Source of the DNA: Promethearchaeota archaeon
Lineage (GTDB): Archaea; Asgardarchaeota; Lokiarchaeia; Sigyniarchaeales; SOKP01
Assembly (NCBI GenBank): GCA_019057865.1
Contig: JAHLWP010000017.1
Location: forward strand, 16,713-80,712
Reading direction: 5' to 3'
Length of the DNA stretch: 64,000 nucleotides
Translations under genes and position numbers: made by a program
Notes under the pieces: generated by a model
The model's database searches: none
What the model saw: the letters and a program-made list of their open reading frames with translations, nothing else
What the model was told of the DNA's origin: nothing
Shown here: in pieces, positions 51,603 to 58,160 of the stretch
Layout: each line of letters starts with the position of its first letter
Numbering within the stretch: position 1 is the stretch's first letter

Positions 51603-54593
51603 TTGAAGAAAAAATTTTTAAAAAAAGTTCTAAATCTCACCTTGACAAGCCTAACATTAGATACAAAAAAAATTGAAAGCCTAATTTTAAAAGGTCTTTA
51701 CGAAAAAGCAGCTGAAGAAATATTTAATTTAATAGATAATTATCAAATTCATCATGATAAAGAACTAATATATAAGAGCCTTAGTTTATTAAACCTAATT
51801 TGTGATAAATCACCTTCTATTTCTTTAAGAGCTGTGAAAAGTATTACAATATTCATTAATGAAATTGATTCTTGGATTCGATTAGTATCTTTAGAAATTT
51901 TATATCAAGTTAGTATGTTTCGACCTAATTTATTAATTGATTTAATTGATAAGATAAGAGCACGTTTATATGATCAAGAACCTTCTGTAAGAAGATTAAC
52001 TGTTAAGATTATTGGCAATTTAATTCTATCGTTACACATAGATTTAGAGCAGATACAAGATATTATTGAAGAATATACTGAAAAATTAATGGATAATGAT
52101 TGGAAAGTAAAATTAAATGTAATTAAAACCATTCAAAAAATCCTAAATCAAGATTACAAAAAAATTAAAGATTTGGAACCATTATTATCGATGGTTATAA
52201 TAAATTTAAGAGATGAAGATGATGATGTAGCAAGAGCTGCTGCTGAGCTATTAAAAATACACGGAACATATTTCCTTTCTAAGGAAAAATTATTTTATCT
52301 TCTTTTAAATCTTCTTTATAATGAAGAAAATAGAGTTAAAGAATTAATTATTTGGTTATTTGGAGAAATTGGAAAAGAAAAGTCCTCTGAAGTTATTTCT
52401 ATTATTCCCAAATTAATAAATCTTTTAAAAGAAGAAGATTATCGTATTGAATTAAAAGTAATTGAAGCCTTAGTCAATATTGCGAAAAATAATTTTGATC
52501 AAATCTGGGCAAATTTAATTCATTCATTACTAGAACCAAGCAATTCTGATTATAGGAATTCATTAATAAACTCAATTTATCATTTGAGTCAAAATAATAT
52601 TACTGTAATTTTTCCATACTTATTTGAGGAATTAGAGAACCCATCTGAGAATGTTAGAGAAGGAATTGCACTAGTGTTTAAACGTTTATTTGAAGAATAT
52701 CAAATCGAAATAGAAAATGAAATAACAAAAATGCTATATAAGTTAGAATCACGTTATTGGAGAGAAAGAGAAAAGACGATAATTTTACTTCAAAATATCT
52801 GTTTCATATTAAAAAGTAAAAAAATTGCTGTATGGGTTACCATTGAATTAGAAAGAGCATTAAAATATGAAAAAGATCCTGAAGTAAAAGATGAAATAAT
52901 TTATGCATTAAAAAATATCAGGAGAAATTTTAGCGACATTGATACAACTATTAAAAAAATCAATGCTGAATTATCATTCTTTCATAGAAAAATTAAGAGC
53001 TTTCAGAGAATTCCAGCTCAATTTAGAGAAAAATTAAATTCTAATATTAATATTTTTAAATTTAACGATACTGAAATTCAGTTAAATAAGAAATACAAAA
53101 AAATTCTAAAGAAAATCAAAAAGTTTCATAAAATAATTAATAAATTTGAATATAAAAGATTAGCTTTTGATTTAATTGAAGAATGGGAAGAAACTAAAGT
53201 TCAAATTATAGAAGAATTAAGTATAATAAAAAGCTTTATATCTGAAATATGTGAGGAAAAGAAGACTGAATTTATTACAGATTTAAAATCAAAAATTAAT
53301 TTGTTAGAAGATCGTATCGTTGTCTTAAAAACACAATTTGATTACATAAAAAATTATGAATTTAGATTAAATTTAGATACTTCAATATCCAGTATTAAAC
53401 TAAGTAATGAAGAAAATGAAAAATTCACATATATAACACAAATAAGAAAAAGTTTATTTAAACTGGACAGTGATATAAGAGAGATTTTAGTAAACAACGT
53501 AGAATTCAACGAAATATTTAAAGATTTATTAAGAAAATGGGTTGAAACAAAAATTGAAATTCAAGAGTATTTAAGCAATCTAGATCGGCAAATTAGACAA
53601 ATGAAAGATAAAATTATAAATTATTTTTTACAAATTGAATCAGTTAGTGATATTGCTGAAGGAGAAAGAATTAATGGAATAAATAGTGAACTAGGGTTTC
53701 AGCTTCTTCAAGGACATATACATTCTATCATTTCTCAAGGAATTGAAGGTTTCAAGAAAATTAATGATAATTTTTCTAAATTAAACTTTAAATTAGAATT
53801 CTTAATTAAAAAAAGTGAATTTTCAGATGCTAAGAAGTTAATTGAGATGAATTCTTCTCAAGTTCAAAATTTCATAGAAGAGAGCGAAAAACAGATCGAA
53901 AATATACTAGATAAGGAAAAAATCTTCGAAGACAATAATGTGTTTAATTTGTACGTTAGACCTTATATCAACAAATTTAATGCTTCAAAAGAATTACTTA
54001 TAAACAGGTTAAAAAATTTTATTGAAAGAAGTAACAAAAAGCTCTACCTAAATCAGATAAAATACTACTTGAAAATTATAAACCCAATGAAATTAGACTT
54101 GCTCTCTTCATATGTAGGATTGGAGATAGAGAAATTAAAAGAATTATTACTAAAATTTATTAATAAAAATAAAATTAATGCAAATATTATAAATGATGAG
54201 CTTTATTCACAACAAATTGGGGCTGATACAGCTTCCTCTATTGAACTTCTCTTTTTTAAAAACATAAAAACTATTGGAAATAAAATTTATTTAAATTTTA
54301 AGTTATCAAATCCTTCAAATTTCGACTTCCAAGATTTGCAAATATCATTGAAGGTTCCTTCTTATATAGATTTCCAGAAAAAAGAAAGTTTTCCTAAATT
54401 TCTCCAACTGAATGAATTAAATCCAGGAAAAGTTTTCAAATTTAATTATGTGTTAAAGGTTGATAGACAAAAAGAACAAAAGAAGAACTTATTCGATCCC
54501 ACTGCTGATGAGATTAAATTGGATTTATACTACAAAGACCAATTTAATATAACACGAAAAACGACAAAAAATATTGATCTTCTATTACATTAA
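51603..54593 (+). CDS. HEAT-repeat protein with coiled coil, PCI-like winged helix and C-terminal beta-sandwich
   Basis: L.D....VR HEAT repeats; LDLLSSYVGLEIEKLKELLLKFINKNKINANI; beta-rich tail with SNPSNFDFQDLQI and LNPG. Confidence 0.8.
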   Translation: MKKKFLKKVLNLTLTSLTLDTKKIESLILKGLYEKAAEEIFNLIDNYQIHHDKELIYKSLSLLNLICDKSPSISLRAVKSITIFINEIDSWIRLVSLEILYQVSMFRPNLLIDLIDKIRARLYDQEPSVRRLTVKIIGNLILSLHIDLEQIQDIIEEYTEKLMDNDWKVKLNVIKTIQKILNQDYKKIKDLEPLLSMVIINLRDEDDDVARAAAELLKIHGTYFLSKEKLFYLLLNLLYNEENRVKELIIWLFGEIGKEKSSEVISIIPKLINLLKEEDYRIELKVIEALVNIAKNNFDQIWANLIHSLLEPSNSDYRNSLINSIYHLSQNNITVIFPYLFEELENPSENVREGIALVFKRLFEEYQIEIENEITKMLYKLESRYWREREKTIILLQNICFILKSKKIAVWVTIELERALKYEKDPEVKDEIIYALKNIRRNFSDIDTTIKKINAELSFFHRKIKSFQRIPAQFREKLNSNINIFKFNDTEIQLNKKYKKILKKIKKFHKIINKFEYKRLAFDLIEEWEETKVQIIEELSIIKSFISEICEEKKTEFITDLKSKINLLEDRIVVLKTQFDYIKNYEFRLNLDTSISSIKLSNEENEKFTYITQIRKSLFKLDSDIREILVNNVEFNEIFKDLLRKWVETKIEIQEYLSNLDRQIRQMKDKIINYFLQIESVSDIAEGERINGINSELGFQLLQGHIHSIISQGIEGFKKINDNFSKLNFKLEFLIKKSEFSDAKKLIEMNSSQVQNFIEESEKQIENILDKEKIFEDNNVFNLYVRPYINKFNASKELLINRLKNFIERSNKKLYLNQIKYYLKIINPMKLDLLSSYVGLEIEKLKELLLKFINKNKINANIINDELYSQQIGADTASSIELLFFKNIKTIGNKIYLNFKLSNPSNFDFQDLQISLKVPSYIDFQKKESFPKFLQLNELNPGKVFKFNYVLKVDRQKEQKKNLFDPTADEIKLDLYYKDQFNITRKTTKNIDLLLH

Positions 54594-54752
54594 TAATTTA
54601 TATCAAATTTATATTAAAATAAAATTATTTTTTACTACTTCTATCAAAGAATTTAATAATTTATTACGAAAATATTAATATATCGTTATTTCTAATTTGT
54701 AATAACTAGATTATGATTTAAAAAATACATAATAACTATCTTGAGGTGAATA

Positions 54753-55778
54753 ATGCAAGAATTAGAGTATACTTTAACTCAACAGGTTAAACTTTTCGGA
54801 TGAAACTGTAAATTAAACGCAAAGAAACTAGAGAGACTTCTTGAAGGAGCTGGTTTAAAAAGAGAAATAGAAGATTCTGCAATTATTCCTGTGCCAAATA
54901 CTGATTTAGTCATGGTAAAAAATATTGACATTTTCACACCAATACTTGATGAGCCTGATATTACGGGAGAAATTGCTGCCGCTAATGTAACTAATGATAT
55001 ATTTGCTCTAAATGTACCAGATATATCAGGAATATTGATTTTTCTGGCGATAAACAAAAAAACTCCCATAGAAATCGCTGAAGGTATATTAAAGGGGATA
55101 AAAAGGTTTATGGTACAAAAATTAAATTCTAAAGTCCTTGGGGGTCATACTATATATACTCAATGGCCATTAATTGGTGGCGAAGCAAGTGGTTTTGTGA
55201 AAAGAGCTTATATTATTAAGAAAAACTATGTAAAAATTGGAGACAAAATAATACTTACAAAACCTATAGGAAATCAATCTGTAATGGCTGCTTACAGATT
55301 ACAAAAAAATAGACCTGATCTCCTAGAACATTATTCTAATAGTGAAGTTGATACCGCAATCGAATTCGCAGTAGAACTAATGATAGAGCCTTTACAAGAT
55401 GTTGTTAAAACGATACATACTTATTCTGATTTCTCATTTGTTCACTCTATGACTGATATAAGCGGATTTGGTTTAGCTGGACACCTAAAAGAGATGCTAC
55501 AAAACTCTCAATTATCAGCAATAATAAAGAAAATTCCTTACATACGATTAGCAAAAGAGTTAGCGTATGATTTTGGCTATAAATTCGATGAGCGCTTAAT
55601 GCCTGAAACTGCTGGGGGAATGCTCCTCTCTGTTGACAATAATTATGCAGAAGAATTTTCTAATAGGCTTATGAGTATTGGAGTAAAAAATTGGATTATT
55701 GGAGAAATCGATAAAATAAAGCCAAAACTCGTTAGAGTTTCTAAAAATGTAGATCATATTGAAATAAAAAAGACTTAA
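54753..55778 (+). CDS. selD: Selenophosphate synthetase, selenoprotein (Sec17 encoded by TGA 54801-54803)
   Basis: GAGGTGA RBS, ATG 54753 in frame: MQELEYTLTQQVKLFG-U-NCK; DIFTP, NDIFA, GGHT, LTKPIG, TDISGFGL, ETAGGML. Confidence 0.93.
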
Positions 55779-55850
55779 CGATGTCAATGATATAAGCTGA
55801 AACACATTATTGTGATTGTTTATTGAGAATTCCGTTGCGAAACGGCATCG
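55779..55850 (+). promoter_or_regulatory. Eukaryote-type SECIS element of selD copy 1
   Basis: ATGA (55787) / TGAG (55824) core, ATAAGC/GTTTAT helix, apical AAA with CAC/GTG mini-stem, CGATG/CATCG closing stem. Confidence 0.88.
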
Positions 55851-56105
55851 ATAAAACTGATTGGTTTTAAATTTTTTCTTTTTTTGTTTTAGGATTTGTT
55901 ATTTGGAATAAATATTATTGAGTTGGATTTCTTATGCATTATATTAGTAATGTAATTCGCTTGTAAGATAGGATTAAATATTGATTTAATTTTATTTATC
56001 GAAAACATCGATATTGAAAATCTAAGATTTTAATAAATAATATAAATTCAAATTATTATTAAAATTCTAATAGGATTAAAAAACCTAGTAAACGTGAGGT
56101 GAAAA

Positions 56106-57134
56106 ATGAAAAAAGAGCCAGAATATAGATTGACAAAGGCAGTTAAAATCTTTGGCTGATCTTGCAAATTGGGTTCTAATGATTTAAAGGATTTACTAGA
56201 GAAAACGGGTTTAAGTGGAGATATTGAAGATGCTGCGATAATACCAGTTCCTAATTCTGATATAGCAATGGTCAAAAATATCGATATTATCACTCCAATT
56301 GTCGATGAACCTGATATTATGGGAGAAATCGCTGCTTGTAACGTCACTAATGATGTATTTGCAATGAATGTTCCTGAAATTTCTGGTATGTTAGTTTTTT
56401 TAGGAATAAACACGAATACACCTATGGAAATTGCTGAAGGAATACTTAAAGGAATAAGCAATTTTATGGAAAAGAAAATAAATTCCAAAGTTGTAGGAGG
56501 TCACACGATATACAGTGAATGGCCCTTAATAGGAGGTACTGCCACCGGATTTGTTGAAAGAAATGCTATTATTCGTAAATATGGAGTAAAGAGAGGAGAT
56601 AATCTTATATTGACAAAACCAATAGGATTACAACCTGTAATGGCTACCTATAGGCTTCTAAAGGATATGCCTGAAATGTTAGAAGGTTATTCTGAGAAAC
56701 AACTTAGGAAATCAATTAAACTTGCTATTAAAATAATGACTATATCAAATAGGAATGTTGTAAAAACTATTCACTCATATAAAGATTTTTCATTTATCCA
56801 TGCGATGACTGATGTGACTGGATTTGGTCTTGCTGGTCATTTATTAGAAATGCTTCAAAATTCTAATTTATCTGCTGTTATTGAAACAATTCCATCAATA
56901 AAACTTTCAGAAAGTTTATCTATTGATTTGGGTTATGCTTTCGATGAATGCAATTGTGCTGAAACTGCGGGTGGTATGCTATTGGCTATTGATCCCCATT
57001 ATACTGAAGAATTTTCTAATACTCTTTCTAGCAATGATATTTCGAATTGGATTGTCGGAAAAATAGATACAGTTGCTCCTGGGCTGGTTAGGGTTTCACA
57101 AAATGTTGAAAATATTGAAATTTCAAAATATTAA
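56106..57134 (+). CDS. selD: Selenophosphate synthetase paralog, selenoprotein (Sec18 encoded by TGA 56157-56159)
   Basis: GAGGTGA RBS, ATG 56106 in frame: MKKEPEYRLTKAVKIFG-U-SCK; NDVFA, GGHT, LTKPIG, TDVTGFGL, ETAGGML. Confidence 0.94.
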
Positions 57135-57207
57135 TGATGTTGATGAAATAAGCTAAAACACAATTTAGTGGCTGCTTATTGAGAGTTCCACGCGCGATGT
57201 GGCATCA
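57135..57207 (+). promoter_or_regulatory. Eukaryote-type SECIS element of selD copy 2
   Basis: ATGA (57143) / TGAG (57180) core, ATAAGC/GCTTAT helix, AAAA + CAC/GTG apex, TGATG/CATCA closing stem. Confidence 0.88.
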
Positions 57208-57219
57208 AATTTAGAATAA

Positions 57220-58011
57220 TTATCTTTCTTTTATTTTTCCTTTAAGTTTTATAGCTATTTCTCTTATTTCATTTAAGACTTTATCAACCAGTACATCTCC
57301 ATTCTCTATATTAAAAGCAGTTATAGAAACCTCAACTTCTACTGATAAACCAATTTTTGGATGTGTTTTAATCCAAAGTTGAGGATATTTATTTTCTAAT
57401 TCACTTGTATAAGCTGCAATCTGACTTTCTCCAATTCCAGAAAAAAGAAAACCTTTTTCTATAAATTTACCTTTCTTCTGTTTTAAAATGGGGGTTATTA
57501 CATTCCTAAACATTGCTTTCATTTCCGCAGGTACGCCAGGCAATATAAAAATAGTTGTATTTCCTTCAATAATCTTAACACCAGGAGCAGTCCCAACAGT
57601 GTTAGGTAAAGGAGTGGATCCTTGAGGGAGATAAGCCATTTTTTCCCTCTCTTTCGTCATCCCTTCAAGTTTTAACAGCCCTTTTTCATAAGCACGCTCA
57701 TAAGTTTTCTTGATAGCTTTATATGCATGTTGGTTCATCTCTAATTCTCTATTTAAACCTTTTGCGATTCCAATTAAAGTCATATCGTCAAAAGTAGGGC
57801 CTATACCTCCTGAAGTTATAATTATATCTGGTTTACGTTTTAGAATGTCTTGTAACGTATTCGAAATAGTATCTACTTCATCCTCTATTGTTGTTATTCT
57901 CTTGACTTTATGACCAAATTTAGTAATCCTTTTCGCCATCCAATTAGAGTTCGTATCTTGAGTTTTTCCGATAAGGATTTCATTTCCAATCATTAGAAGT
58001 TCAATATCCAT
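57220..58011 (-). CDS. CinA-like molybdopterin-binding domain protein
   Basis: IGNEILIGKTQDTNS, SGGIGPTFDDMT, N.VGTAPG, LPGVPAEM, GIGES; GGTGA RBS before ATG 58011. Confidence 0.9.
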   Translation of the reverse strand: MDIELLMIGNEILIGKTQDTNSNWMAKRITKFGHKVKRITTIEDEVDTISNTLQDILKRKPDIIITSGGIGPTFDDMTLIGIAKGLNRELEMNQHAYKAIKKTYERAYEKGLLKLEGMTKEREKMAYLPQGSTPLPNTVGTAPGVKIIEGNTTIFILPGVPAEMKAMFRNVITPILKQKKGKFIEKGFLFSGIGESQIAAYTSELENKYPQLWIKTHPKIGLSVEVEVSITAFNIENGDVLVDKVLNEIREIAIKLKGKIKER

Positions 58012-58160
58012 AAGTTCACCATCACACAAAAATAACAATCTAATTTAGTAAAATTAAATACTCAATTTCAAATTATCATTCTTCTAAGTTTAATTTAAAA
58101 AATTTGATATTCTATAAATCTTTTATACAATTAAATAAAAGATACTGACAGACTTTAGGA

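Follow-up and report, generated by a model that had tools for sequence, protein, structure and literature searches.

The tandem selD genes and their selenocysteine codons

We have analyzed a stretch of 64,000 nucleotides of DNA (referred to in the following as the window) from a member of the Promethearchaeota, the group formerly known as Lokiarchaeota, in which two genes predicted to encode selenocysteine (Sec)-containing selenophosphate synthetases (SelD/SPS) follow each other on the same strand, each with a putative selenocysteine insertion sequence (SECIS) at its 3' end. The window corresponds to contig C30 of a metagenome-assembled genome (MAG; G000) with a size of 4.26 Mb, a GC content of 29%, a completeness of 99.7% and an estimated contamination of 5%. 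SelD/SPS enzymes form selenophosphate from selenide and ATP. All selenium use starts from SelD, and since this enzyme is a selenoprotein as well, it depends on its own product.

The upstream gene, selD-1 (54753-55778, + strand), encodes a protein of 341 amino acids and represents the derived paralogue of the pair, while the downstream gene, selD-2 (56106-57134, + strand), encodes a protein of 342 amino acids and is of the ancestral type. Both reading frames begin with an ATG that is preceded by a Shine-Dalgarno-like GAGGTGA motif, as read from the sequence (54743-54749 and 56096-56102, both + strand), and both run through an in-frame TGA at the catalytic G-U-x-C-K site, just as an earlier reading of this DNA from its letters alone (the sequence-only reading) had proposed. 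In selD-1, this triplet is codon 17 (54801-54803, + strand; U17 in F-G-U-N-C-K), and in selD-2 it is codon 18 (56157-56159, + strand; U18 in F-G-U-S-C-K). When TGA is translated as Sec, each protein contains a single such residue, and the two polypeptides can be aligned without gaps at an amino acid sequence identity of 63%. The genes are separated by 327 nt on the same contig. The longest stop-free open reading frames (ORFs) under translation table 11 start at 54891 (GTG) and 56169 (TTG), past each TGA, and consequently leave out the catalytic loop. TGA terminates nine of the 48 long ORFs in the window, an ordinary use of this codon that had also been noted before; this organism thus employs the standard code, and the recoding is site-specific.

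Both proteins exceed the cut-off of the NCBIfam selD model TIGR00476 (125 bits), with scores of 169.5 bits for SelD-1 and 198.6 bits for SelD-2, and no other gene in the genome does so; with the Methanococcus-type model NF010705, they reach 256 and 284 bits, respectively, just below its cut-off of 291. The N- and C-terminal AIRS domains (PF00586, PF02769) are matched by both, and the closest solved structures are those of human SPS1, a Leishmania SPS, and the SelD proteins of Aquifex and E. coli. Both copies contain the G-[U/C]-x-C-K loop, which provides the catalytic Sec/Cys and Lys residues (FGUNCK, FGUSCK), as well as the four conserved Asp residues of the ATP/metal site (D41, D59, D82, D235), which align with D69, D87, D110 and D265 of human SPS1, residues that we take from the structural literature to be metal ligands. 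Both SelD proteins most likely make selenophosphate.

A three-way-junction RNA element behind each gene

Directly at the stop codon of each selD gene begins a member of a conserved class of 72-73 nt RNA elements: SECIS-1 (55779-55850, + strand) behind selD-1 and SECIS-2 (57135-57207, + strand) behind selD-2. The stretches of about 130 nt that follow the two stop codons show a mean column identity of 83% when aligned to each other. We aligned the elements of 82 family members and derived a covariance model from them. A structure with five helices has 96% of its cells paired in these 82 sequences, and compensatory changes are found in 19 of its 21 pairs, a level that none of 500 shuffles reached; pairing falls to 29-46% once the 3' partners are slid. 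From its 5' end, the element starts with a closing helix of 5 bp, whose 5' strand is continued by a canonical stem of 2 bp and a bulge of 3 nt; these are followed by the core, with the invariant sheared G.A/A.G pairs of AUGA...GA and then a U.U or A-U pair, and by an upper stem of 6 bp, an unpaired AAA and a ministem of 3-4 bp at the apex. On the 3' strand, a hairpin of 5 bp with a GCGA- or UGCRA-type loop is placed between the core and the closing helix. The selD SECIS is therefore a kink-turn arm inside a three-way junction. The sequence-only reading had described a hairpin that starts right after each stop codon; its starting point was given correctly, while the simple hairpin has to be replaced by the junction. 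The distance from the UGA to the AUGA, which it had estimated at about 975 nt, measures 986 nt in both genes.

In SECIS-1, helix I is formed by 55779-83 with 55846-50, the 2-bp C-stem by 55784-85 with 55827-28, and the sheared GA pairs, which follow the bulge at 55786-88, by 55789-90 with 55825-26; helix II (55792-97 with 55818-23) leads to the unpaired AAA (55800-02) and the ministem (55803-05 with 55812-14), and the 3' hairpin (55832-36 with 55841-45) carries the loop GCGA. SECIS-2 has the same architecture, with helix I at 57135-39 and 57203-07, the AUGA at 57143-46 and the 3' GA at 57181-82, helix II at 57147-53 and 57174-80, the ministem at 57159-61 and 57168-70, and the 3' hairpin at 57188-92 and 57198-57202 (all on the + strand).

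As a sequence pattern, the elements display a putative kink-turn motif consisting of a stem, a bulge of 3 nt, tandem sheared G.A/A.G pairs and a non-canonical stem. The 2-bp C-stem covaries: its first pair is CG in 59 sequences, UA in 18 and UG in five, and is never unpaired, while its second pair is UA in 72, AU in three, CG in one and GU in one. The published Asgard type II 'eSECIS-like' model has the core 5'-GA...[G/A]A-3' (usually AUGA_GA), an upper stem of 7-15 bp in which up to two mismatches are allowed, a bulge of 4-12 nt with unpaired adenines and a ministem of 2-8 bp. All of these parts are found here. Three of the four core positions (5' G, 5' A, 3' A) do not vary in the 82 sequences, and the fourth, the 3' G, is conserved to at least 90%; the six covarying pairs of the upper stem and the U.U (or A-U) pair add up to seven; the bulge reads UGAAA or UAAAA on the 5' side and has 3 nt on the 3' side; and the ministem of 3-4 bp shows compensatory changes. 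Each of the two elements is located in the 3'-untranslated region (3'-UTR), and the in-frame UGA of the respective gene occupies a known Sec position. When the covariance model was run against the 4.26-Mb genome, it recovered exactly SECIS-1 and SECIS-2, with 93 and 92 bits, which bears out the assignment of a separate 3' kink-turn SECIS to each gene by the sequence-only reading. The next match (G000:C17:11779-11858, - strand) reaches 22.6 bits at an E-value of about 0.5; it lies beside a pattern of AUGA, 8-bp stem and A-rich loop near C17:11691 (+ strand) and probably reflects chance.

Between the two genes, SECIS-1 is followed by the T-rich tract TTTTTTCTTTTTTTGTTTT (55872-55890, + strand), a probable archaeal transcription stop. 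A run of at least five T within 70 nt past the SECIS is present behind 26 of 27 upstream copies, which suggests that the two genes may be transcribed separately. In Logan contigs of RNA-labelled libraries from three studies, short and near-identical pieces partially cover both selD genes and retain the TGA.

A type I element (AUGA, a stem of 8-9 bp, A-rich loop) takes the place of the type II element at the 3' end of some selD orthologues. These are the downstream copies at loci L065 (G117) and L070 (G120), and the genes at L080, L105 and L106 (genus g6), L081 (g7), L085 (g10) and L086 (g11). Hence, the type of SECIS has been switched within one orthologous gene.

Selenocysteine machinery of the genome

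The presence of the Sec machinery in this genome, which the sequence-only reading had named as a check on its proposal, could be established. A SepSecS gene (488 bits, above its cut-off) is located at G000 C41:173829-175130 (- strand), and a tRNA-Sec lies 76 nt upstream of it at C41:175206-175322. This tRNA has a UCA anticodon in the anticodon loop CUUCAAA and a T-loop insertion (intron) of 31 nt; it matches the Rfam tRNA-Sec model over its full length with 34.6 bits, a value below the gathering score, and it was not called by ARAGORN because of the T-loop intron. The gene for EFSec/SelB (245 bits; C41:178485-179405, + strand) follows 3 kb further on from tRNA-Sec and SepSecS, so that these three components are clustered within C41:173829-179405 (loci L003, L004, L008). 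In addition, the genome encodes a KTI12/PSTK-like kinase (PF08433, E=4e-35; TIGR03574, 148 bits). A tRNA-Ser gene (aga according to ARAGORN; G000:C23:125993-126095), which has an intron of 12 nt, scored 37.9 bits with the tRNA-Sec model; we do not regard it as a second tRNA-Sec.

About eleven type I lokiSECIS-like elements are present elsewhere in the genome. Ten of them are positioned at C3:36654-36714, C14:46363-46424, C23:5849-5910, C23:77891-77952, C23:88292-88356, C37:10744-10805, C37:63555-63616, C54:17258-17319, C57:15867-15930 and C71:19114-19173, and one further candidate with 39 bits is found at C66:81253-81313. The ten elements named first, on which the examination was carried out, possess a small 3' hairpin after their GA(C)/AA(C) core. 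As to other selenium pathways, queries for the SelU and YqeB families gave no match in this 99.7%-complete genome, and a query with TIGR04348, which we take to be the SenB-type glycosyltransferase family, yielded in the same genome only weak glycosyltransferase matches, with scores no higher than 32 bits (cut-off, 300).

Distribution and history of the selD pair

A selD match (E<=1e-30) was obtained in 112 of 121 Lokiarchaeia genomes, and nearly all of the matches listed contain exactly one in-frame TGA. Two copies on the same strand occur in 24 of the 36 sampled genomes of the genus to which the window belongs (g1) and in about half of the genomes of a second genus (g4); the remaining 23 genera sampled have one selD gene or none. 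The same-strand pair is thus limited to two related genera among these 121 genomes. Within the pairs, the copy with the lower identity is always the upstream one, and the two genes are mostly 230-500 bp apart; in some genomes, unrelated genes have been inserted, and the gap is then 1.5-2.2 kb. One such insert (L064:1665-2954 of G042) is a gene for a 2-hydroxyacyl-CoA dehydratase D-component (HGD-D, PF06050), and another (L061:1743-3461 of G013) encodes a membrane-anchored BD-FAE/alpha-beta hydrolase. The upstream-type match at G079:C136:4302-5285, which begins at residue 16 and includes a TAA, may represent a damaged copy or a sequencing error.

We calculated a maximum-likelihood tree from 100 SelD sequences of the fetched loci, which represent a subset of the 112 selD-containing genomes. 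The 28 upstream copies all group together in a single clade, with a support of 99 in the SH-like approximate likelihood ratio test (SH-aLRT), and all downstream and single copies form another (SH-aLRT 91), with other families serving as the outgroup. In the unconstrained tree, the upstream clade is placed near the base of the family. A topology in which both paralogues of g1, g4 and g6 form one clade, and which therefore implies a later origin, was not rejected by the approximately unbiased (AU) test (p=0.377); hence, the duplication is at least as old as the common ancestor of these three genera and can be dated no more finely than that.

Conservation, selection and the signature of the upstream paralogue

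The TGA is found at the G-U-x-C-K site in all 99 relatives, in line with the expectation of the sequence-only reading that it should be conserved at the Cys/Sec position, and a Shine-Dalgarno-like motif together with an in-frame start codon precedes it in 86 of 91 family members. The residues L8, T9, G16, U17, C19, K20, D41, D59, N78, D82 and D235 are near-invariant over the 100 SelD proteins. In close genome pairs, the ratio of non-synonymous to synonymous substitution rates (dN/dS) amounts to 0.07-0.22 for both paralogues (0.07-0.17 for selD-1), so purifying selection acts on both selD copies. The upstream gene evolves more slowly: its median dN is 0.153 versus 0.202 for the downstream gene, and it is the slower one in 298 of 378 genome pairs. 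Since all upstream copies form one clade and both copies are under purifying selection, they trace back to one old duplication and do not represent an artefact of assembly.

The catalytic loop itself distinguishes the two types of SelD proteins. It reads FGU[N/D]CK in all 27 upstream copies that cover the site, and [H/F/Y]GUSCK in all 72 downstream and single copies. Altogether, five differences are fixed between the clades (selD-1 numbering; upstream/downstream state): L14/I, N(D)18/S, S42/A, A77/C and L214/N. The outgroups show the downstream state at positions 18, 77 and 214, and the upstream copy is consequently the derived one. The downstream selD is the ancestral, universal copy, and the upstream selD is a conserved accessory paralogue in which the residue between Sec and Cys has been changed.

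Interpretation of the pair and alternative explanations

We consider it very probable that the locus comprises two functional paralogous genes for Sec-containing SelD enzymes, each with its own SECIS, which derive from one old tandem duplication within this family of the Lokiarchaeia. The UGA at codon 17 of selD-1 and codon 18 of selD-2 would be read as Sec via the tRNA-Sec and the EFSec of the genome, and the SECIS in the 3'-UTR of each gene, starting at the stop codon, would direct the recoding of that gene's UGA. The kink-turn arm of this SECIS corresponds to the published type II 'eSECIS-like' form (AUGA...GA core, upper stem of 6-7 bp, unpaired AAA, ministem) and meets the closing helix and the small hairpin on the 3' side in a three-way junction; the kink-turn would presumably be recognized by a binding factor. 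SBP2 was not detected in Lokiarchaeota by Mariotti et al. 2016 (PMC4989117).

Several points weigh against this interpretation. The PSTK candidate scores 148 bits, below the NCBIfam cut-off of 290; the RNA-library pieces cover both selD genes only in part and may stem from carried-over DNA; and we infer the actual insertion of Sec and the enzyme activity of both proteins from their sequences. Furthermore, the SECIS families of Rfam give no match at E<=10 in the region 54000-58000, and no Rfam family reaches its gathering score anywhere in the window. The elements thus are not members of the eukaryotic SECIS covariance models, and the term 'eukaryote-type', which the sequence-only reading had used, stands as a description of resemblance (AUGA/GA, type II-like) and falls as a statement about membership in a model. 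The selD 3' element is predicted to work like a SECIS, yet to stand outside the eukaryotic model family.

It is very unlikely that the 3' elements are not SECIS elements but belong to a different type of kink-turn RNA, for example a C/D-box sRNA, a regulator bound by L7Ae or a terminator structure. The top, non-significant Rfam match is indeed a C/D-box snoRNA family (21.8 bits, E=8.4), but the position of the element is fixed at the selD stop codon in 82 relatives, its AUGA/GA core, unpaired AAA and ministem agree with those of the published SPS lokiSECIS, the model finds matches in the genome only behind the two selD genes, and the genome has related elements of type I at other sites that share the third arm. 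We regard it as extremely improbable that the TGAs are true stop codons in front of N-terminally shortened SelD-like products, or that one copy is a decaying pseudogene. The table-11 ORFs do start past the TGA, a codon that serves as an ordinary stop in the rest of the window; however, the 16-17 codons ahead of it are conserved and preceded by a Shine-Dalgarno motif and an ATG, a shortened product would be devoid of the catalytic Sec/Cys and Lys residues, dN/dS is far below 1 in both copies, and a dedicated SECIS stands behind each gene. The chance that we are dealing with 'apparent paralogues', created by the mixing of related strains during assembly or binning, is practically nil. Mariotti et al. 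2016 cautioned in their main text against such cases in Loki metagenomes (PMC4989117), and the genome studied here is a MAG with 5% estimated contamination, but a distance of 327 nt on a single contig separates the two copies, whose identity is no higher than 63%. Moreover, the same order of the genes recurs in 28 genomes, including the single-contig assemblies G092 and G094, and this recurrence rules out an artefact of this kind.

A different question is whether the two enzymes do the same. The upstream clade might have taken on a distinct role, for instance in the use of another selenium donor or delivery partner, as a subunit that regulates SelD-2 or forms heterodimers with it, or in the supply of an unknown selenium pathway, so that the pair would be subfunctionalized and not redundant; we regard this as possible but doubtful. 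It would fit the five fixed differences between the clades, among them N/D versus S between Sec and Cys, Cys77Ala and Asn214Leu, and the retention of the slowly evolving upstream copy (median dN 0.153 versus 0.202) in at least 28 species, and the same possibility was raised in the main text of Huang et al. 2024 (PMC11227280). On the other hand, every catalytic residue checked is present in both copies, no marker of another selenium pathway turned up with the SelU, YqeB and TIGR04348 queries in the 99.7%-complete genome, and the downstream type alone suffices in many sister species. The more specific proposal that the upstream clade (FGU[N/D]CK, Cys77Ala, Asn214Leu) is a functionally distinct, Sec-retaining SelD subfamily, either a specialized selenium-acceptor form or the partner in a SelD-1/SelD-2 heterodimer, which became established in the ancestor of two genera of the Lokiarchaeia and has persisted in tandem ever since, strikes us as unlikely. 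If true, it would constitute a case of prokaryotic SelD subfunctionalization in which both copies are still selenoproteins.

With regard to two functional paralogues as such, it is possible that they are kept for dosage or for the robustness of a self-dependent enzyme, or for split roles. In connection with dosage, we compared the number of type I lokiSECIS matches per genome (model R2) with the selD copy number in genomes that are at least 90% complete. The hand-tallied means were 9.8 versus 8.1 in g1 (20 versus 7 genomes) and 8.3 versus 7.8 in g4 (10 versus 13 genomes), and the genomes are not independent of each other; the difference being small, we draw nothing from it.

Relation to known systems

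The SECIS of Lokiarchaeota SPS genes has been known since 2016, when Mariotti et al. reported Sec-SPS in Lokiarchaeota with a distinct type II-like SECIS of shorter stem (PMC4989117), and genomes with more than one selD copy since 2024 (PMC11227280); the novelty that the sequence-only reading had implied is reduced accordingly. According to the main text of the 2016 paper, those genes share with the ones studied here the in-frame UGA at the homologous Sec site, the 3' element directly past the stop codon, the AUGA...GA core, a main stem shorter than that of other lokiSECIS and an extra apical stem; the 31-nt T-loop intron of the tRNA-Sec is an exact match. In contrast to the pair described here, a single SPS fragment per genome was reported, and neither the closing helix nor the 3' hairpin is mentioned in that main text. 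Huang et al. 2024 found, as stated in their main text, selD elements to be mostly of type II and counted at least two selD genes in 51 Loki- and Thorarchaeia genomes, with the speculation that multi-copy selD may be more active or have a new role (PMC11227280). Their model comprises the core, upper stem and apical part only, whereas the selD element studied here has more arms; the word 'tandem' is absent from their main text, and its passages on selD are silent on a single origin, paralogue-specific residues and a three-way junction. A review from 2026 makes no mention of paralogues or of a duplication.

In our view, the feature is real but is mostly published biology with modest new detail, and the gain is incremental and not surprising. 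New are the synteny of the tandem copies and their single origin, and also the paralogue signature and a full secondary structure that is supported by covariation. In the surveys, as far as their main texts go, extra selD copies in Asgard MAGs were merely counted, with the caution that mixtures of strains might account for some of them (PMC11227280, PMC4989117). At this locus, the second selD is a true, ancient and syntenic paralogue that has a SECIS of its own and is marked by a signature beside the catalytic Sec, and selD-1 and selD-2 form a defined pair with which a division of labour can be tested. Moreover, through the covariation data, the secondary structure of the selD SECIS is well supported as a kink-turn within a three-way junction; this element is presented in the literature as the likely forerunner of the eukaryotic type II SECIS. 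With the latter (e.g., that of SEPHS2), it shares the AUGA/GA kink-turn quartet, the unpaired adenines before the ministem and a location in the 3'-UTR far from the UGA; it differs in its upper stem of 6-7 bp and in the hairpin that is inserted into the 3' strand below the core.

The metazoan SPS1/SPS2 pair likewise arose through duplication of SelD/SPS, and both copies were retained over the long term. In metazoan SPS1, the Sec/Cys has been replaced and selenophosphate synthesis has been lost, whereas Sec, Cys, Lys and the Asp residues aligned with the metal site are all retained in the two copies studied here. The metazoan SPS1 paralogues go back to separate, independent duplications (Mariotti et al. 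2015, PMC4561486), and the selD duplication is independent of these and confined to one archaeal family. The parallel to SPS1/SPS2 drawn in the sequence-only reading is weak, since Sec and every catalytic residue checked are still present in SelD-1 as well as in SelD-2. Its suggestion that the pair has subfunctionalized may hold, but Sec, Cys19, Lys20 and the four Asp residues aligned to human SPS1 are kept by both. As a further case of adjacent selenoprotein genes on one strand, the hdrA-vhuD (frhD) genes of Lokiarchaeota can be compared; these have, according to the main text of PMC4989117, one SECIS after the second gene, while each selD has its own, with a T-rich tract between the two genes.

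Genes flanking the pair

Directly upstream of selD-1 lies a gene for a protein of 996 amino acids (window positions 51603-54593, + strand) that has HEAT repeats in its N-terminal part and continues as a long, coiled-coil-like region rich in Lys and Glu. On the other side of the pair, a MoCF_biosynth (CinA/MogA-like) gene (57220-58038, - strand) is oriented convergently on SECIS-2.

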